Of a stretch of DNA of 64,000 bases, positions 8,935-51,776 are shown piece by piece. Origin of the DNA: Octopus sinensis (taxonomy: Eukaryota). Both the position numbers and the translations under genes were made by a program. The notes beneath the pieces are model-generated. The model ran no database searches. It had not been told where the DNA came from and saw only the letters and a program-made list of their open reading frames with translations. The stretch is taken from the NCBI RefSeq assembly GCF_006345805.1, contig NC_042999.1, forward strand, positions 18,848,001 through 18,912,000, in the 5' to 3' direction. Every line of letters begins with the position of its first letter. The first letter of the stretch is position 1.

Positions 8935-9300
8935 GCTAATAGTGCGTAGGAGGGGTCTGGACGTGTGTATGTATAGGGTGGGTGTGTATGTATTAGTATG
9001 TGTATAAGGGTGTGTGTGTGTGTGTGTGTGTGTATGAGAGAGTATTAGTGCGTAGGATTGGTGTGGACGTGCGTATGTATGGGGTTGGTGTATGTAATAG
9101 TATGTATTAGTATGTATTAGTACGTATTAGTATGTATAAGTGTGTGTGTGTGTGTGTATGAGAGAGTATAAGTGCGTATGAGGGGTCTGGACGTGTGTAT
9201 GTATAGGGTTGGTGTATGTATTAGTATGTATTAGTATGTATTAGTACGTATTAGTATGTATTAGTTGGTGTATGTATTAGTATGGCACATCATATATGAT
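8935..9300. repeat. Imperfect ~110-bp tandem units with (TG)n and (TATTAGTATG)n inside PLE 3' region
   Basis: ggacgtgtgtatgtatagggt recurs near 8960, 9065, 9190; tattagtatg decamer repeats. Confidence 0.8.
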
Positions 9301-10041
9301 GTGATGTGTGAAGTCATGTGGTGTAGTGAGGAGAAGAGGGGGGAGAAGGGGGGAGGAGAGTGGGAGGAGGGGGAGGAGAGGAGGGGGGAGAGAGGAGGGG
9401 GGAAGGAAGGGGAGGAGGGGAGGAAAGAGGGAGAGGGGGAGGAGTGGGGGAGCAGAAGGAAGGGGAAGAGGGAAGGAGGGAGGGAGAAAGAGGGAAGAAG
9501 GGAAGGGGAGTAGGGGTGAAAGGATGAAGGAATGAAGAAGTAGGGGTCGGGGGAAAGGATAGGTGAGGAGGGGGGGAGGGTTGATTAGAGGGGGAGAGGG
9601 GGGAGAGTTGAGACCAAATGGCGTATAAGAGCGAAGAGAGAAGATTAATTCCTGTTCACGGCGCAAACGGGAATCCGGATGGCCTCTGTGTAAGGACAAA
9701 CCGAACACAGATAGGTGTTGCAAGGAGTGACCGGTGGAGCGGAAATGGCGTGAGACCGGTGTGTCGTTCGCAAGGTGGATGTCACGAAGGTGTTCCGCGA
9801 ACCGGTCAGCCAAGCGGCGTCCCGTTTGTCCGATGTACAAGGAATTGCAGAGAGAGCAAGAGATGCAATAGATAATACTGCTGGAGGTGCAGGTGAAGGA
9901 GTGGATGATGGGATAGGGTCGATGGTGGCTGCTAGTGAGGCGGGTGGTGTTGGAGAGGTAAGGGCAAGTGCGGCAACGTGGGCGGGAGCAGGGGAACGAG
10001 CCGGGTTGGGAGGTAGGGTCAGGGAAGGAGCTATGGACCAA
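9277..10041 (-). pseudogene. PLE GIY-YIG endonuclease with upstream Cys-rich linker (C-terminal part of frameshifted RT-EN ORF)
   Basis: CSRPRCRTC linker, FTCTSSSIIYCISCSLCNSLYIGQTGRRLADRFAEH...PVSRHF...REQELIFSLRSYTPFGLN: PLE GIY-YIG motifs. The Pro/Leu tail (9277-9600) is low-complexity. Confidence 0.93.
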
Positions 10042-10329
10042 AAGGTCTCGAAGGTTGTGGGCTCGTTTGAAAGAGGGGAGGGGTCGGTTAGGGAAGAGGT
10101 GTGAAGTGGACGGGTCGGACTGGAGATGACGGAAAGCTCGAAGAATGGTGCGTTGGAGACGTAGGGTCGTGGGGTGGTAAGGTAGGGAGTGAGGGGAAAA
10201 GGGAGGCGGAGACTACAGGGCGGGTTCGGGGAGAGAGAGCAGATACACGGTCCACGGACCGTGCTCTGGCAAGGGCGGTGTGGATAGTGGTGAGGGGGAT
10301 CCACGTAGGGTGAAGTGGTGAGCCATACG

Positions 10330-11093
10330 TTGAGACTGAGTCTCAAAGTCATGGTCGTCACTACAGAGCCTACGTAGACGGAGGAATTGGGAATAGGGGA
10401 TGGAAAGCTTGGTGTGTTCTGGGTGGGAGGAAGAGAAGTTGAGGTATGAGTGTGAGTCTGTGTGTTTGTAGTGAATGGAGGTGGTAAGAGTGGAGTGAAG
10501 AATGCTAACCGAAATGTCGAGGAAGGAGACAGAGGTGTTGGAGATCGTGGAAGTGAAGTGGAGGGCTGGATGGAAAGATTGGACGAAAGAGAGGAAGGAA
10601 TCTAGATGTTCGCGGGAGAGTGAGGTGGCACCGATAATGTCGTCGATGTAACGACCATATAGTTCGGGAGTGGGACCAGTGAAATTAGAGAATATTTGGG
10701 CTCAACATAGCCAACGAACAGGTTCGCATAGTTGGGGCCCATTCGCGTTCCCATGGCCACTCCCGAGACCTGATGGTAGAACTCGCCCGCGAACGAGAAG
10801 CAGTTCAGAGTAAGGACAAGTTCGGCCAGACGAATGAGTGTGGAGGTGTCAGGTACAGGGTTAGAGCGGAGATCAAGAAAGTGTCGAAGGGCCTGCAGTC
10901 CTTCGTGGTGAGGGATAACAGTATAGAGGCTTTGGATGTCCATAGAAAAGGATTTTGGAGGAGCCGGGAGGAAAGGAGAAAGAGTTGAAAAGCCGGAGAG
11001 CATGGTTGGTATCGTGGATGTGGGAGGGAAGAGATGCCACTAGGGGGGCAAGGACACGGTCGAGGTATTTAGAGATGAGCTCCGTGGGGCAGT
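10330..11093 (-). pseudogene. PLE reverse transcriptase (frameshifted, N-terminally truncated)
   Basis: CPTELISKYLDRVLAPLV, MDIQSLYTVIPH, LNCFSFAGEFYHQVSGVAMGTRMGPNYANLFVGYVE then, after a 1-nt shift near 10700, QIFSNFTGPTPELYGRYIDDIIG (YIDD catalytic motif ~10640-10651) and SFLDI downstream. Confidence 0.93.
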
Positions 11094-15522: not shown

Positions 15523-15755
15523 ATATTTCTTTATTATCCACAAGGGGCTAAACACAGAGGGGACAAACAAGGACAGACAAACGGATTAAGTCGATTACAT
15601 CGACCTCAGTGCGTAACTGGTACTTAATTTATCGACCCCGAAAGGATGAAAGGCAAAGTCAACCTCGGCGAAATTTGAACTCAGAACGTAACGGCAGACG
15701 GAATACGGATACGCATTTCGCCCGGCGTGCTAACGTTTCTGCCAGCTCGCCGCCC
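15523..15755 (-). mobile_element. tRNA-derived SINE family A, full length
   Basis: Reverse complement ggcggcgagctggcagaaacgttagcacgccgggcgaaatgc...gagttcaaatttcgcc...gcctttcatcctttcggggtcgataaa; many near-identical copies in window. Confidence 0.92.
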
Positions 15756-24315: not shown

Positions 24316-24549
24316 ACCTATTTCTTTACTACCCACAAGGTGCTAAACATAGAGGGGACTAGCAAGGGCAGACAAACGGATTAAGTCGATTACATCGACC
24401 CCAGTGCGTGACTGGTACTTAATTTATCGACCCCGAAATGATGAAAGGCAAATTCGACCTCGGCGGAATTTGAACTCAGAACGTAACGGCAGACGAAATA
24501 CGGCTACGCATTTCGCCCGGCGTGCTAACGATTCTGCCAGCTCGCCGCC
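24316..24549 (-). mobile_element. SINE family A, full length
   Basis: Near-identical to 15523-15755; TSD-like ta(t/c)ataccta on both sides. Confidence 0.92.
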
Positions 24550-24886
24550 TTACATACCTACATCTATACATGCATATATGTACTTAAATATGTGCGTGTG
24601 TGTGTGCACGTGTATGTGTGTAAGTATATGTTGAATACAATCATAAGTAACTGATTCTCCTATAATTTCTTTTAACCAAAGCCAGGAACTTTTCAGCACA
24701 CCCCCGTATGCCGAGCCATTGTTTCTATGTTAGAAACAAAATTCATGGTGAGATGATAAATTAGCTGTCTGTGAAACAATCTAGAAATCACATTGCCTCC
24801 AACAATAGCTGCATTATTGCAACCTCGGTTTGCTTTCTAATATATTATATTGAATTATACAATTACACATTGTATGTATTGAAGGT

Positions 24887-33818: not shown

Positions 33819-34265
33819 GACCTTACGTCATGTGAGCTATCTTAAAGTATATCTCAGTTCCCTTCCTTGTTTGTGTAAATGAGAACTAATATTCAATATA
33901 TACAACATTTCAAGTTCTGTGGAATAGAGCAATTTAACCTCCATTAGTTGAAGTACAATAATATCGTTTTATCTTTTTTTATTTTGTTAGGAATTGTACT
34001 CTGGGCCTAGCTGGGATATCGCCTTCAAAAATGGTTTTACGTGAACGAATCGACCCAAGTAATTATTTTAAAAATCCTGATTCGTATCCTGCTGGATGTT
34101 TTGCTGAACCGCTAGCTTACAGCAACACACACACATGCCAACACTGATTATCATGTTGTGAGGGGGGGGAAACCCAATGATGAAGACTCAGACAAATATA
34201 TATATATATATTTATAAAAAGTGTATGTGACATACGAATGGGCATATATATATATATATATATAT

Positions 34266-35100
34266 AATTAAAAATGAGGGTATCTGAGAGACACCACCAT
34301 GCCGAAATAGCAGTCGAAACTCTGACTATAAAAACCACGTTAAGTGTTCACATCGTACCATGAGATAAGACAGAGGGACAAAATAGACAAGCAAAAGTTA
34401 TTGAATAATTCAAGATCCAGGATTTCTGGTTTTGCTTTAAATAAGCTTTACCGTCATCGGTTGAATATATCAAGAGTACATAAATACAGATATATATATG
34501 CAGAACAAACGATATACTTACGATATACGTACCTTTGTACGGTATTTTTTCCCATGCTGGCCACTTGATAATTTCGATATTTAAATATCGATATTATCCT
34601 CATTTATAAATTTATATAATTCGTTATTATATTCACTGCGGTGTTTATTTTAACCATATCGTGCTAATGGGGTGTTTTTGGCGGGCAATTTAACTGGCCG
34701 TGTGCATACGTACATATGTATATATGTATGGACGTTCGTATATGTAAGTATATCGTTTGTTCTGCATATATATATCTGTATTTATGTACTCTTGATATAT
34801 TCAACCGATGACGGTAAAGCTTATTTAAAGCAAAACCAGAAATCCTGGATCTTGAATTATTCAATAACTTTTGCTTGTCTATTTTGTCCCTCTGTCTTAT
34901 CTCATGGTACGATGTGAACACTTAACGTGGTTTTTATAGTCAGAGTTTCGACTGTTATTTCGGCATGGTGGTGTCTCTCAGACACCCTCATTTTTAATTG
35001 TAAAAAATTATTACCTTTGTACGGTATTTTTTCCCATGCTGGCCACTTGATAATTTCGATATTTAAATATCGATATTATCCTCATTTATAAATTTATATA
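34266..35100. repeat. 256-bp inverted repeat (34266-34521 / 34744-34999) plus 89-bp direct repeat (34530-34618 / 35012-35100)
   Basis: Mirror ORFs 34344..34568(+) and 34664..34921(-) share 59 aa; only about 2 mismatches seen between arms; bounded by (TA)n on both sides. Confidence 0.95.
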
Positions 35101-35218: not shown

Positions 35219-35761
35219 TTTTAAAAATTAAGTGTAATAAAAAGTTCTTAAAAGTTTCATACTAGTCTCAACAGAGTCCAGTTGGTGGTGTTTTGTGGCG
35301 GGGAGCATAATGGTTGTCTTGCGCGTTGACTACAATCGTTAGCTGTAATCGTGAAAAGAAAATATTTTACCATATATATATGTGTGTGTGTGTAGAAAGA
35401 TAGATACAGAGAGACAGAGAAATAGAGAGACAGAGAGAGAGAGAGAGCGGTAGATAGAAATGTGTATGCAACGGGTTTTTTTAGTTTCCGTCTATTAATT
35501 CCATTCACAAGGCTTTATGTATGCAAGAGTTTATTAAATGCTCTATATTCTTCCTAATTATTATTCAATGAAATGCTATTTTCACGAACTCATCACAAAA
35601 TTCGCTTTCAATGTATAATTCATTCTTTTAACTTTCGTACACTTTTGTATTATAACTTCCCAAACAATTCCTTTAAAAAACATTTACATTCTCACTTAGC
35701 ATTATTAAATCATGTGTTGTTTATTACTTTTAATTTTAAGTACTTTAAAAACCCATATATA

Positions 35762-35794
<33 letters not shown>

Positions 35795-36008
35795 ATTATG
35801 TGAAATAGAAAGATGAATAATCTTGTAGTAGATTAATCAAAAGTTTAACCGATACCTTAGTAGCAAAAATCACAGCAGTAAACAGCACGGTTGGAGGTAC
35901 AACCATATGGTGTTGCAACCGTGCGTTGGTGCGGATAATTGAAATTAAAACATTATTGGTGAATTGAAGAAATGGAGCTGAACGCAGATTGAACAGAAAT
36001 CGTTTTAT

Positions 36009-36096
36009 TTCATTCTACACGTGTTTCGAAAGGCACAAATTACCAAAATCCGATTGAATAATGGGACCATATTGTGTCTTTCTCTTCAGGAAGAAA
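36009..36096 (-). ncRNA. Type I hammerhead ribozyme, left arm of palindrome
   Basis: Minus strand TTC-CTGAAGA-GAAAGACACAA...TTGTGCCTTTC-GAAACACGTGTA-GAATGAAATAAA: intact core, long stem II, palindromic ACACGTGT stem III, GUA triplet, TTC/GAA stem I, then AATAAA. Confidence 0.85.
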
Positions 36097-37327
36097 ATAG
36101 GAAATCCGTTGGAAAAACAGAAACAGAACAGAGGCGGAGCAAAAACAAATCGAACTATGCTCCTAAGAGCCCATGGCGAAACTGTTTATCAGTGTATGTT
36201 GAGAACCGGTGGCTGAAGAATTTAACGGGTCACGCATCGGTCAATCATGTGGGTGAGGGTGTGTGGGTGTTCTTTGTGACCGAGAATAAAGTTCTGACTA
36301 TTTAAGGAATATTGGATGTTTTATAAGGGGCGAGAAAAAATCTACTTAGAGACGTGTGTGTATACTGTTCTATATATGTGTGTGTTGGCGTAGGGGTAGA
36401 AAACATTTTTTGTGTACGTGTGTGCGTTTGATCGTTCGGCTGTCAGTGGCTACTGCCGCGAGAACCGTTGGGTGGCAGAAAAAAAATATATATATTATGT
36501 TTTATGTGTGTGTGTGTGTTCATCTAAGCCTGCCTTGTCAAGGAAACCCCCCGCTGTGAAAAAACCAAGCCCCGTTTGTCTAACAGGAGTAATTCCCCTT
36601 GCAGTGGTTAATCGTAGATATCTTAAAGGCTATTTCAGAATTTGTTACCAAGGGCTATGGGTGCCGGTATTATTTATAAACGCTATTTAAAAGCCAGATA
36701 AGTGTAACGGCGGCGTTACACTTATCTGGCTTTTAAATAGCGTTTATAAATAATACCGGCACCCATAGCCCTTGGTAACAAATTCTGAAATAGCCTTTAA
36801 GATATCTACGATTAACCACTGCAAGGGGAATTACTCCTGTTAGACAAACGGGGCTTGGTTTTTTTCACAGCGGGGGGTTTCCTTGACAAGGCAGGCTTAG
36901 ATGAACACACACACACATATAAAACATAATATATATATATTTTTTCTGCCACCCAACGGTTCTCGCGGCAGTAGCCACTGACAGCCGAACGATCAAACGC
37001 ACACACGTACACAAAAAATGTTTTCTACCCCTACGCCAACACACACATATATAGAACAGTATACACACACGTCTCTAAGTAGATTTTTTCTCGCCCCTTA
37101 TAAAACATCCAATATTCCTTAAATAGTCAGAACTTTATTCTCGGTCACAAAGAACACCCACACACCCTCACCCACATGATTGACCGATGCGTGACCCGTT
37201 AAATTCTTCAGCCACCGGTTCTCAACATACACTGATAAACAGTTTCGCCATGGGCTCTTAGGAGCATAGTTCGATTTGTTTTTGCTCCGCCTCTGTTCTG
37301 ATTTTGTTTTTCCAACGGATTTCCTAT

Positions 37328-37415
37328 TTTCTTCCTGAAGAGAAAGACACAATATGGTCCCATTATTCAATCGGATTTTGGTAATTTGTGCCTTTCGAAA
37401 CCCGTGTAGAATGAA
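37328..37415 (+). ncRNA. Type I hammerhead ribozyme, right arm of palindrome
   Basis: CTGAAGA 37335-37341, GAAA 37397-37400, GTA 37406-37408; stem III reads ACCCGTGT (one change from the left copy). Confidence 0.8.
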
Positions 37416-37475
37416 TTAAAACGATTTCTGTTCAATCTGCGTTCAGCTCCATTTCTTCAATTCACCAATAATGTT

Positions 37476-37600
<125 letters not shown>

Positions 37601-45718: not shown

Positions 45719-46056
45719 TAATATATATGATAGTGTGTGTGCGTGTGAGTGCACATATATATGTATATTTTGTCCAAAATTTTTACAAAAGAAATCGAGA
45801 AAATTAACACATATACACATTTGTACAACATCAGGTGACATATTATGGGTGACTTGTTTGTCAGTGGAGTATAATATTTAAGCGGAGAAGTGAAAATGTA
45901 TGTTGATCCCTTTGGCAATTTTTATTTCATGATGCGAATTTTATTATTAGAATTTCACGTTTCGCTCATTTCTCACATTTAAGATTATATGAAACAACTG
46001 TATTGACGAAAATAACATGGGCATATAAGAATAATAAGGCATTGTATATTAATATT

Positions 46057-46361
46057 GTGGAGGCGCAATGACCCAGTGGTTAGGGCAGCAGACTCGTGGT
46101 CGTAGGATCGCGGTTTCGATTCCCAGACCGGGCGTTGTGAGTGTTTATTGAGCGAAAACAGCTAAAATCTCCACGAGGCTCCGGCAGGGGGTGGTGATCC
46201 CTGCTGTACTCTTTCAGCACTCTTTCTCTCGCTCTTTCTTCTGTTAGCCTGCTCGCTTAGCCAGCGGGGTGGCGTCATTCGAAAACTAAAACAATGCGGA
46301 CGCATTGTGACCAGCGATGTGTAACTACATCTGATGGACTGATCGGTCACGCGCTCACGTG
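46057..46361 (+). mobile_element. SINE family C with 11-bp TSD
   Basis: tRNA-like head; TSD atattaatatt at 46046-46056 and 46362-46372; absent from the opposite IR arm. Confidence 0.92.
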
Positions 46362-46861
46362 ATATTAATATTAGAGTATGCTCTGGTGATTGAAACATAG
46401 AATGAAGCTCTATTGTTTCTTTAACATCAAATCTGTTTTGATCGAGTAGACCGACAATGTACCATGTTACATACATCGTCGTCATTTCTGAGAGTGCCTA
46501 AGCCACTATTGCGCGACGTGCATCCCAACATTACGACAATAATGAAAGATAGTTCTGCTCTAACGACCATCCATGTTTGTTTTTGTTCGGTTTCTTTGTA
46601 TCTCATCACTGTCATGTATTTGCTCCCAATTGTGGGCTGTCTGTCTACTCCTCGTTTCGTGCATTCAACGACCATAAAGTTTAGGATTTCTGGAGGGTCA
46701 AAGTTGGGAGCAAAAACATGACAGTGAGGACATACAAAGAAACCGAACTGAAAAAAACATGCATGGTCGTTAGAGCAGAACTATCTTTCATTATTGTCGT
46801 AATGTTGGGATGCACGTCGCTCAATACAGGCTTCGGCGCTCTCAGAAATGACGACCATGTA

Positions 46862-47182
46862 TATGGAGGCAGTTGCCGCAACCGTGGAGACTGGCGACGT
46901 ACCGTAAGAGAGGGAATACAAAGGAGTGACAGAGAGAGAGAGAGAGAGAGAGGAGAAATGGAAAGACAAGAAAAGACGTCAACAAGAAACTATGGCATTA
47001 CATCCAGCCAGGAACAGTCTTCGCTACATTTGCGGTACCTGCCAGAGGGAGTGTTTGTCCAGGATAGGACTACACAGCCACAGCAGGAAATGTATCAGGA
47101 CATGAAATGTAAAAGCCGGACTAGACTACTTCATGCGCAACCCCATTGTCTCCCGAGACAAAAAAGGATGCCAACCAACCAG
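46862..47182 (+). mobile_element. RTE-clade LINE 3' fragment
   Basis: NRGDWRRTVREGIQ then RYICGTCQRECLSRIGLHSHSRKC (RTE-type C-terminal zinc-finger motif), short 3' UTR and (CCAA)n tail. Confidence 0.85.
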
Positions 47183-47624
47183 AATATAATATTGTACATT
47201 GTCGGTCTACTCGATCAGAACAGACTTGAAGTTAAAGGAACAATAGACCTTTAATCTATATTTCAATCACCAGAGCATATTCTAATATTTGTATGCACTG
47301 CATTATTATTCTACTATGTCTCTGTTGATCTAAGTCACTTAAGTTGATTTCATATAATCTTTAACGTGGAAATGAGCAAAACGTGAAATTCTAATAACAA
47401 AATTCGCATCACCAAATACAAATTGCCAAAGGGATCAACATATATTTCCATTTCTCTGCTTAAATATTATACTCCACTGACAAACTAGTCACACATGATA
47501 TCTCACCTGAAATTGTACAAATGTGCTAATTTTCTCGATATCTTTTGTAAAAGCTTTAGTAAAGAGTAAATATATATATACTATATATTATTTAATTGAA
47601 CTCCACGCTTTCATTTCCAAGTAA

Positions 47625-48248: not shown

Positions 48249-50540
48249 ATTATGGGTATGTGTGTGAGTGTGTGTGTGTCTGTGTGTGTTTATGTGCGTA
48301 TGTGTGTATGCGTGTGACGGGATTCCGCATTTTACGTGTAACAAATTTTACATGGCATTAGCCATTAATCGACTTGCGCCTATAGGCATTCGTATTCGAG
48401 GGGGTTATTTATTGTTACAATCTCCTTGGTAACATGCTGATGAGAACGGATGCGATTCTGTAGCATATGAATTATACTTCGATTGAAATCAACCTCAGCT
48501 CTTAAGTCAAAAATATCCTTGATCAATTTTACTCTATCTATAGCGTTTACGTTGTTATTTGACATGTTTACAGCTCTATTTACACCGTTTATGATTGGAC
48601 AAATCGAAATTTGCCCATCATTAATACTGACAATTATTTATAACTGACTTCACAAGATTTTAAAACCTTTGATTTGTTGCCCAACATTTAATTGACATGA
48701 CTATCGTACACTCATAGCTTAGGTTAAGTTATGGTATAACCAGTCCAAAAACTTAAGTATTTGGCAGTCTCGTATAACTTCTCCAGTCGTTTAAATAACG
48801 TGAATATATATCGTCATATCTCTATTATCTAATAATGTGATAATGAAAAGAATTAGGTATTATGTTCTTAAACGTCTTGAATAAGGACTAAATCCATTGA
48901 CCGATATAATTAATGCAACGAAACAACTTAGCAAAGGAAAGAAATTGAAGGCATGATTAAAATGCTTAAGATTGAAAGAGTTTTAAATCTTATCCATTCA
49001 AAAACTTGACTATAAAGCAAAACTGAAAATAAAATGAATATTTGTTTAAAACAAATTTAGCTATAATTATACGAGAGATTTAAAGACATGGTCGTTACAG
49101 CATTTGCATTGAAACAAATCTGAGTTGTACGTCTTCAAGAGCTTCAAGTGCGGAACGAAATGGATTGTATAATTAAAATGGTAAACAGTTTTGAAATTAA
49201 TCGAATTGTTATCAATTCATAAAAATTATCTACGTAATATTGTAATCAAAATTCTATAAATCAACTTCAGATGAGGGGCAAAATGGAAGCCAGAATCTAA
49301 ATATTCTGCATTGTTAATTCACAATAACTATGGCACTACATTAAAATACGAATGTTAAGGCGATATATATTTTTTTTTTCTTTTTAAGAAAGACTTTAAA
49401 ATTATACTCCAAAAATAAATATAGCAACATTTATACAGGTCCCAGAATTGCGTAGAAAAAGACAAAAAGACAAAAAGATTACTAGCGAGAGATAAGGGTA
49501 AGATAATTAAATAATTGTTCAAGGAAGCATCGAGAAGATTAGAAATTAGTAGGATTCCCGAAATGAGCATAAGAAAACGAATCGGCCTTTAGGTAAGCGC
49601 TCTATCTGCTAGAAGTAGCAACCAAATCATTCGGTTTTGTAAAGAAGCGTAATGAATTTTCTGACCGTGAATTTCTTCAGGGAAGTGAAATATAGGGATC
49701 GCCGAGGAGAGGAGTCATATAAGCTTAAATATATTTGGTCGGGATTGATTTTGAGCTGAAAATCAAGAACAATGAAACCTGTGCTGCGTATCAGAACATG
49801 AGCTTTTATATGGCATTTCCAAGTCGTAGAAAACCTATAAGTATTTTATAAAAAATATCCATCTGTTTTCAAGAAAGAATCAACGCATATGATATAATCT
49901 TATATGTTATTTCAAACACAAGGTTAATTAATGTTTTTGATCATAGAACCGCTAAATCAGGCCTGTTTTGCAACTAAAAGATACCGACTCAACATACCTG
50001 CATGGATAATTGGCCAACAGGATAACAACGTTCTTCCCGTATTATACGCTCCTCTTTCAGAAACAGCATTTGTAATTGTTCTGTCCCCTTGAACAATACA
50101 ACTGTGAAAAGGAAATCGGAAAATTCGGGAAAATCTTCATGAGAATTAATTGGATCATTAGTGTAAGACAACACCAGCAAAAACAGTAACAGATTACATA
50201 CTAAAGCAACGAGACTATATTTACGTAGATGCAGTCTATTACAAATAGCATCTAAGAACACATCAACGCCATCTAGTGTCTTAAAATTGCAGGTACTACA
50301 TAACACGCTGATTAATATGTTTTATACTGTAAGTAAAAACATTTCGGTCACGGTTAGAATACATTGCAACAAATATCTACAGTTAGAGAGGGTAGTGATT
50401 AAAAGCGTTTAACAGATAAACGGTTTTTAACGTAATCTATATGAGACTGTATATAGAAGTACTATTATGCGTTTGAACATATTCTATAAGAAACTTTACA
50501 TAGAAGTACTATATGTCACATACATATATAAGATTTCGAA

Positions 50541-50767
50541 GGCGGCGAGCTGGCAGACACATTAGTGCGTTGGGTGAAATGCTTAGCGGTATTTCGTCTG
50601 TCGTTACGTTCTGAGTTCAAATTCCGCTGAGGTCGACTTTGCCTTTCATCCTTTCGGGGTCGATAAATAAAGTACCATGTTCGCACTAGGGTCAATGTAA
50701 TCGACTTAATCCGTTTGTCTGCCCTTGTTTGTCTCCTCTATGTTTAGCCCCTTGTGGGCAGTAAAAA
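50541..50767 (+). mobile_element. SINE family A with ~21-bp imperfect TSD
   Basis: ggcggcgagctggcaga head; atacatatat(aa/gt)gatttcgaa at 50520-50540 and 50768-50788. Confidence 0.92.
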
Positions 50768-51361
50768 ATACATATATGTGATTTCGAAAATAAAGCAAGT
50801 ATAGGTGTCACTTTAGTTGCTTTGTTAAGTGTGAAGCATTGTATTCAATTATGAAAGTAGTTGAAAGTGTAAGTGCCACGTAAATGTATTCTTTCCAAAA
50901 TATAACTAGTTTTTAAAAGATCAACTGTATATTCTAGCATTGACTTCCAGTTGTCATCAGTTTCGTCATACTGCATATATAGTTATGATGTTTTTCGTTT
51001 TGCAACAACTCTCTCATCTATAGTCACAAAGTTTGAATAATTTCTTTTCGTGGTGGAGACAGTCAGTTACATTGAATCAAGCGCTTCACTGGTACTTGTT
51101 TTAACGACCTTAGACTTTGAACGTACAACGTATGACCGAAAGAAAGTGATGCTAAATAAATTGTCCCATGTGTTAAGGAGCTTGTCGGGTCGGCATTTGT
51201 CTTTTCTTGGCAATAATATAGGACAGAGTTCGCACCTATGAATCTCCTCAAGTACAGTTGTAGGTATTCCCCAGACTTGCAAGTGAAATTTGATTGGTGA
51301 AAACAGGTAATCTACGTTTCTTAAGTCGTAGACCAAATCCGATGTTTGATTTAATAGTACC

Positions 51362-51776
51362 TGTTTCTTTCTTACCCACAAGGAGCTAAACATAGAAGGG
51401 ACAAACAAGGATAGACAAACGGATTAAGTTGATTACATCGACCCCAGTGCGTAACCGGTACTTAATTTATCGAGCCTGAAAGGATGAACGGTAAAGTCGA
51501 CCTCGGCGGAATTTGAACTCAGAACGTAACGGAAGACGAAATACCTATTTCTTTACTACCCACAAGGGGCTAAACACAGAGGGGACAAACAAGGACAGAC
51601 AAACGGATTAAGTCGATTATATCGACCCCAGTGCGTAACTGGTACTTATTTAATCGACCCCGAAAGGATGAAAGGCAAAGTCGACCTCGGCGGAATTTGA
51701 ACTCAGAACGTAACGACAGACGAACTAGGCTACGCATTTCGCCTGACGTGCTAACGTTTCTGCCAGCTCGCCCTCT
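51362..51776 (-). mobile_element. SINE family A tandem dimer with 17-bp TSD
   Basis: Full monomer 51545-51772 plus head-less unit 51362-51544; TSD tttgatttaatagtacc at 51345-51361 and 51777-51793. Confidence 0.93.

Follow-up and report, generated by a model that had tools for sequence, protein, structure and literature searches.

Head-to-head copies of Penelope-like elements (PLEs) with outward-facing hammerheads are already published. An inverted 5'-truncated PLE copy with a tail at one end is in print in the legend of Fig. 2 of Craig et al. (2021, PMC8557442), and the supplement of the same paper gives the Repbase entry Penelope-13_HM, with a 966-nt inverted 5'-truncated copy and hammerheads on both strands. 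PLEs of the Hydra clade are marked, in the available text of that paper, by a DKT motif, the absence of an internal CCHH motif, the presence of CxxC and CxH, and (TA)n targets. Pairs of hammerheads lying 100-700 bp apart on opposite strands are described for Schistosoma in the available part of Cervera and de la Pena (2014, PMC4209133). The origin of head-to-head inverted PLE ends is called open in passages both of PMC8557442 and of the study of Adineta vaga by Arkhipova et al. (2013, PMC3846280).

Biochemical evidence comes from an anole PLE (Frangieh et al. 2024, PMC11167929). Its protein, a predicted dimer, cleaves both strands and extends them; it works on uncleaved RNA and starts at two internal sites of that RNA, between which the tail lies. 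The available portions of this in vitro study give no explanation of head-to-head joins. Separately, a 2026 preprint (bioRxiv 10.64898/2026.07.22.740005) argues from phylogeny and co-distribution that retrozymes are mobilised by PLEs.

Layout of the insertion

The window analysed here is a stretch of 64,000 nucleotides from Octopus sinensis (NC_042999.1, positions 18,848,001 to 18,912,000). A preliminary description, made from its sequence alone, had reported a palindrome with arms of about 760 bp, few differences between them and a GCGG loop, an outward-facing type I hammerhead in each arm, AATAAA in the left arm and a right end abutting (TA)n, and all of these observations were confirmed (Table 1). 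The alignment of the arms has 762 columns, in which 6 substitutions and one one-base indel occur (99.1% identity), the loop consists of 4 nt at 36710-36713, and AATAAA occurs at 36009, in the left arm alone. The span of 35949-37475 previously given to the unit was too small: the left arm extends past 35949 as a tail of ~151 nt (35948-35795) that is common to many genomic copies. The whole insertion thus occupies 35795-37475, with one tailed (long) end, one short end and (TA)n on both sides.

Table 1. Features of the inverted insertion and of the neighbouring element, in window positions
Feature	Position	Strand	Remarks
(TA)n target, left flank	35755-35794	none	Basis: TRF
Tail of the long (L) end, ~151 nt	35795-35948	-	Structured; equals the 5' leader of the next tandem unit
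Left arm	35949-36709	-	ORF end, 3' UTR and pLTR; 5'-truncated at 36709
Left type I hammerhead motif	36008-36096	-	Core 36089-36083; predicted cleavage after 36016 (H17); family-consensus form
Head-to-head junction	36709-36713		1 nt of microhomology (G36709); the GCGG is part of the right arm, being ORF sequence of the plus strand
End of PLE RT-GIY-YIG ORF	36709-36740	+	Last codons ..RRYTYLAFK*; TAG stop 36738-36740
Right arm	36714-37475	+	3' UTR and pLTR; ends at the short (S) end site
Right type I hammerhead motif	37328-37416	+	Core 37335-37341; predicted cleavage after 37408 (H17)
(TA)n target, right flank	37475-37597	none	Basis: TRF
Motif core of neighbouring element	34805	+	
Motif core of neighbouring element	34460	-	

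We found no ORF of at least 120 aa overlapping the arms, and no obvious host exon ORF in the ORF survey of the window. The earlier statement that the palindrome carries no credible ORF stands in this respect, but the unit is not wholly non-coding, as the last codons and the stop of a PLE ORF are retained at the apex. The right arm extends 4-5 nt further inward than the left arm. The variant G37191 is present in both arms and, by exact search, nowhere else in the assembly, and four of the differences between the arms are private or nearly private alleles. Folding around the apex gave no RNA structure that could act as a pause site (z=0.11).

A putative Hydra-like parent element

The palindrome is almost certainly a PLE insertion, and the link to PLEs drawn in the preliminary description is upheld. 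Its arm is the 3' end of a young, high-copy, autonomous protein-coding PLE, here termed family A, and comprises the last ORF codons, the 3' UTR and the pLTR. A search of the 2.72-Gb genome with the arm brought up 1925 first-look candidates, of which the 40 scored are 95-99% identical to it. This search had been proposed as a way to find tandem or palindromic copies with the same apex: it returned tandem 3.6-kb coding units and inverted two-armed copies, and by exact search of the assembly the GCGG junction of the window was not found elsewhere. It had also been considered that the arm might be the 3' end of an autonomous PLE without further palindromic copies; the arm is such an end, but other inverted copies are the rule rather than absent.

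In other copies an RT-EN ORF lies upstream of the arm sequence, its last codons being the first bases of the right arm. Tandem copies with partial pLTRs set the unit at ~3.62-3.66 kb, and an open ORF of 895 aa, starting ~200 nt past the short end, was identified in 2/20 regions taken around tandem junctions (L082 and L087). The assignment of the palindrome to a non-autonomous retrozyme-like unit was therefore mistaken. Taken alone, the locus is the usual debris left by an active PLE, a dead by-product without an ORF.

A protein search with the element ORF yielded 37 matches of 27-40% identity, nearly all unnamed, with no significant Pfam family (GIY-YIG included) and no match in a sequence search of the PDB. 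The predicted model of the RT had telomerases as its best fold matches (Z 16.8, rmsd 4.7, 289 aligned). For the model of the C-terminal 130 aa (pLDDT 84), the best match was the GIY-YIG domain of I-TevI (Z 9.8, rmsd 2.4, 89 aligned), and the next three were likewise GIY-YIG-type nucleases. The RT of a sister-copy ORF carries a YRDD motif; the window itself keeps only the ORF end.

We identified in this family the hallmarks of EN+ PLEs: pLTRs arising from partial tandems, an inverted 5'-truncated copy, a tail at one end and a pLTR hammerhead motif. As in the Hydra clade, the insertions sit in (TA)n, which flanks 41/44 of them on both sides. The DKT motif of that clade (in place of DKG) is present as SDKTRN in the protein alignment, and the CCHH motif is absent from the GIY-YIG core, where a lone Cys stands between the equivalents of GIY and YIG. 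The residues C, E, N, C and H of the CxxC and CxH motifs around E and N are invariant across 27 rows. In the RWK motif, RW is retained and K is replaced by L, most homologues having RWK; the CxCX5C linker motif, which the homologues keep, is degenerate, with one Cys inside a low-complexity insert. Because of this degenerate linker, and of a placement made by motifs, we provisionally file the element as a Hydra-like EN+ PLE rather than as a member of the Hydra clade. The Neptune clade, our first guess, was ruled out on motifs, as was a DNA transposon with long TIRs by the unequal ends, the variable inner truncation and the RT ORF. Hydra-1_Obim (2507 bp) is not family A, its listed hammerhead differing by eye.

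Two N/S-rich inserts of low confidence, missing from homologues, were noted at residues ~485-559 and ~631-766 of the ORF at L087:3737-6421. The second stands in for the linker zinc-finger motif; the family is nonetheless young and (TA)n-specific, and this replacement argues against a need for the linker zinc-finger motif in (TA)n targeting. Five family-A loci (L033, L083, L091, L116 and L122) show internal deletions or duplications, or arms that are interrupted.

Hammerhead motifs and the tail

Each arm carries CUGAAGA, a long stem II, GAAA, a 2-bp stem III and a GUA site, and the stem II-loop II segment is 54 nt long. Stem/loop III of the left motif is palindromic (ACACGUGU). Rfam gave zero matches to the window palindrome at the gathering score and, at E<=10, 18 weak matches to generic hairpins, with hammerhead families absent; the identification rests for this reason on the motif and on covariation. 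Against the sister family described below, 88.6% of cells are paired compared with 31-49% in slid controls, and 4/21 pairs have two-sided changes (three in helix II and one in the palindromic loop), the set being 9 sequences from 2-3 subfamilies and so representing few independent events. Loop III changes from ACGU to AUAU between the families, is palindromic in both, and the core is kept.

The minimum free energy fold of the hammerhead monomer buries the core, the hammerhead fold lying higher by 2.8 (left) and 4.2 (right) kcal/mol. We predict that the motif is an ordinary pLTR ribozyme acting as a dimer through the palindromic loop III. At 37402 the right copy carries an A>C of its own, seen in 0/86 other pieces, which breaks the palindrome of loop III and takes the calculated self-duplex of that loop from -10.3 to -0.5 kcal/mol; this change is predicted to block dimer cleavage of the right hammerhead. 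Among pieces of the family, 105/135 continue through the cleavage site; no junction falls exactly on it, and 5' ends do not cluster there. As pieces cross the site and no junction lies on it, the template RNA was presumably uncleaved at the hammerhead, like that used by the anole protein.

Folding of the tail is stronger than that of shuffled sequences (z=-2.9), and 6/44 pairs of its consensus fold have two-sided changes across families. In tandem copies it precedes, and leads into, the ORF of the next unit. We regard the tail as a candidate protein-binding site between two start sites.

End types, shared alleles and junctions across insertions

We pooled 132 loci of family A and removed duplicates, leaving 54 distinct inverted junctions, 8 of them cut by the edge of the locus. 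The loci sampled were the best-scoring matches, that is, the youngest and those nearest the query, rather than a random set. Among the 46 junctions with both outer ends visible, 44 joined a long to a short end and 2 a short to an interrupted end, with no long-long and no short-short pairs. Two inverted arms were present in 36/42 large loci, all long plus short (the 36 include the window, the targeted locus L102 and one probable duplicate), and 6/42 showed one arm alone within the stretch fetched. The end sites are themselves largely fixed, the short end falling on the identical reference base in 33/44 insertions and the long end also in 33/44.

The same pairing was found at homologous sites in all 17 junctions of a sister Hydra-like family, family B, although part of these loci had been picked with a query spanning the tail, among which short-short pairs could not turn up. 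Family B (3053 candidates; L133-L162 and L165-L194, e.g. L147:1205-1763) is ~73% identical to family A over the hammerhead and tail and 67-80% in the ORF; its 3' UTR is shorter and the block from hammerhead to tail is conserved. A third, more divergent copy stands in tandem behind a family-B copy at L154:2003-3258.

Both arms of an insertion derive from one source. At 31 common polymorphic sites, the arms of one insertion agree at 308/313 calls (98.4%), compared with 52.9% between insertions, and divergence within insertions is below that between insertions in 30/30 cases (medians 0.38% vs 1.75%), including arms that lie kilobases apart. Junctions overlap by at least 2 nt in 33/41 cases, compared with 31% of 300 random joins.

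The arms of sister insertions overlap by up to 2.4 kb, and near-perfect palindromes recur (L102, L118, L128 and L033), the apex of L102 lying in almost the same place as that of the window with a different junction. Together with the 966-nt inverted copy of Penelope-13_HM, these contradict the earlier view of the window palindrome as far longer and more symmetric than a typical inverted pLTR copy. Near-palindromes are modestly enriched in family B, with 6/17 inside 15 nt for an expectation of 1.9 (p=0.004), and weakly in family A, with 4/50 inside 35 nt for an expectation of 1.85 (p=0.11; 3/30 vs 0.7 for single-piece arms, p=0.02), where the counts leave out the window and L102.

Proposed two-ended priming and its alternatives

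The insertion consists of two 5'-truncated 3' stubs joined head-to-head, probably by two-ended priming. Under the mechanism that we propose, the RT-GIY-YIG protein, likely as a dimer, would bind the structured tail of uncleaved element RNA and cut a (TA)n tract on both strands. Of the two 3'-OH ends, one would start cDNA synthesis at the short site, directly 3' of the hammerhead, and the other at the long site, 151 nt further 3'. The RNA behind both cDNAs would come from a single source and perhaps be a single molecule, the trailing RT pushing aside the cDNA made first. The 3' ends of the two cDNAs would then anneal through a few bases and be filled in. At this locus, both cDNAs would have stopped no more than 5 nt apart, a little inside the end of the ORF, so that the palindrome came out near-perfect. 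The counts favour two primings from one source over the rival models; the end types and shared alleles, taken by themselves, fit one RNA, two RNAs from the same locus, or a fold-back followed by central deletion alike. A point against the model is that in the anole assay the start site, in the available account, is the same for both strands (PMC11167929), so that the assay supplies no cause for the strict asymmetry of long and short ends.

The alternative that survives best, though we judge it unlikely, is self-priming, in which a single cDNA or antisense RNA snaps back and copies itself, the endonuclease resolves the second end at the short site, and central deletions arising later make the arms unequal. 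This is the published interpretation of such ends (PMC3846280, in its available text), and it accounts for arms that are identical down to the private G37191, for the microhomology and for the excess of near-palindromes, as well as for the short arm being contained in the long arm in 27/44 insertions. Without deletions, however, a fold-back demands containment throughout, and at least 30 nt of the short arm is missing from the long arm in 17/44 insertions, 4/44 pairs being without any overlap, so that many deletions would have to be supposed in very young insertions. Fold-back of a tailed strand further predicts that the long arm reaches further inward, whereas it is the short arm that does so at the window and in 14/17 untied near-palindromes (p=0.013; a hand tally with a threshold chosen post hoc). 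At the window, a simple fold-back is disfavoured because the tail of the left arm is missing from the right arm, which in turn extends inward by 4-5 nt more than the left. A mixed form may also apply: a short-site cDNA would snap back onto a tail-only cDNA, and two priming events would still be needed.

The notion that the 1.5-kb palindrome moves as a whole, as a retrozyme-like master of non-autonomous kind, is largely refuted and we hold it to be very improbable. It would suit the nearly identical place of the L102 apex and the density of junction ends around the ORF end, but an exact search of the assembly for the apex pattern gave only 2 places, which differ in junction and in alleles; no sibling copies share the private variant, the close relatives L031 and L034 reach far into the ORF, and a tandem array of the arm alone was not seen.

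An assembly or long-read fold-back artefact has scarcely any probability left. Long palindromes are hard to assemble, and when 36650-37474 was compared with four public DNA-type contig sets, which returned the family at high depth, no contig or joint crossed the apex among the 32 of 5464 pieces listed from these four public runs, all without long reads; contig loose ends at 36709 ran on into ORF sequence in sets X1, X2 and X6. Against an artefact, the flanks differ, the ends are the two natural end types of the family with the tail on the left arm alone, the arms can be told apart at 7 places, and insertions of this layout are found on many chromosomes. Hardly to be credited, either, is an origin from two insertions made independently, or from ectopic recombination between separate copies, with a later fusion by deletion: the family is abundant and (TA)n-targeting and nested insertions occur, but the allele sharing (98.4% within insertions vs 52.9% between) and the strict pairing of long with short ends speak against them.

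Beyond two-ended priming at this locus, a broader reading, for which we see a little less than an even chance, is that PLEs integrate obligatorily by twin priming from two sites of a single RNA. This would take the place of the published antisense self-priming model for inverted pLTRs and would mobilise non-coding 481-bp parasites too. If this twin-priming reading were true, each target strand would have its own start site, the two sites flanking the conserved tail hairpin, and many near-perfect hairpin templates would be seeded through the genome, including by way of the 481-bp tandem parasites with U4C hammerheads.

The neighbouring 481-bp element and other observations in the window

A different inverted insertion, flanked by (TA)n and built of a non-coding 481-bp unit, was identified at 34254-35098, ~700 bp left of the palindrome. 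The unit has 1913 candidates in the genome and arrays of up to about five units, with a longest stop-to-stop frame of 87 aa. Its hammerhead-like motif, which in one window copy lies at 34799-34858, has the core CCGAUGA (U4C) in 19/19 motifs matched; U4C has a precedent in a viroid, where the activity measured in vitro is reduced (PMC3088659, available text). The ends fall at unit position 474-481 versus 355-396 in 11/11 two-armed loci (13 examined, L195-L206 and the window), the second being exactly at 385 in 8 of the 11, which gives the element a 96-nt tail and the same signature of one long and one short end as in family A. Several of its apexes cluster at an internal (AT)n run. The 481-bp element is likely a PLE-mobilised retrozyme that CUGANGA descriptors have missed, and it is this neighbour, not the palindrome, that fits the non-autonomous retrozyme-like unit sought in the preliminary description. 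The end signature of family A in this element would give direct genomic support for PLE-driven mobilisation of retrozymes.

Elsewhere in the window, 9277-11039 (-) holds a further PLE whose ORF is broken; it retains RT-like pieces and a GIY-YIG domain with Cys pairs (Pfam E=0.002, below the cut-off), and we take it to be Neptune-like. Nested inverted repeats of ~90% identity lie at 45816-47525 (arms 45816-45972/47369-47525 and 46471-46634/46699-46862), and a dispersed SINE-like repeat of ~184-230 bp occurs at 51358-51724, 50539-50768, 24322-24551 and 15527-15754, once as a tandem dimer.

Significance

The interest of these data lies in the family rather than in the locus: family A is young, its two end sites are fixed at a distance of 151 nt, its alleles are informative and some of its ORFs are open, and it makes the rival models of inverted PLE ends directly testable. 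Added here are the end rule, the allele sharing of the arms and their joining by short microhomology; the family itself may already stand in a repeat library. Neither a strict rule of one long and one short end nor a join of two cDNAs was found for PLEs in the open literature, subscription papers and Repbase lying outside the scope of this search.

Comparison with known systems

In LINE-1 twin priming, too, cDNA is primed from each of the target strands, and microhomology joins the products. The LINE-1 pieces do not overlap and their second site varies, whereas in family A both sites are fixed and the arms overlap.

Non-LTR retrozymes (PMC7229834; bioRxiv 10.64898/2026.07.22.740005) resemble family A in their type I hammerhead and their relation to pLTRs, but are short non-coding tandem units without an ORF, whereas the window arm is part of a 3.6-kb coding unit. 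The minimal and dimeric PLE hammerheads, as described in the available text of PMC4209133, are alike in being type I, with a long helix II, a tiny helix III, a palindromic loop and a predicted dimer; in the window the helix II extension is longer and the motifs lie ~1.3 kb apart.

The Penelope elements of Adineta vaga share, in the available account (PMC3846280), head-to-head inverted repeats, palindromic junctions, a tail at one end and N-rich inserts in the ORF. Their inverted pLTRs were read as self-priming on an antisense template, which the containment data of family A disfavour as a general route. The Poseidon element PAc of Anolis carolinensis is alike in its two internal start sites, which bound a tail 3' of the hammerhead, its AT-rich target and its uncleaved RNA template (PMC11167929, available portions). 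The same source cites a tail of 30-40 bp for Penelope, compared with 151 nt in family A, and the PAc hammerhead overlaps the start codon, whereas the open ORF of family A begins ~200 nt past the short end.

Also close in its motifs is the Hydra clade, which, in the available text of PMC8557442, shares with family A the C-terminal GIY-YIG domain, DKT, CxxC and CxH, (TA)n targets and a pLTR hammerhead. Hydra-clade elements are generally <3 kb there, compared with a 3.6-kb unit encoding 895 aa in family A. Family A differs from the clade in the reduction of CxCX5C to one Cys within N/S-rich inserts and in RWL for RWK, and is set further apart by its stem II-loop II of 54 nt and its tail of 151 nt.
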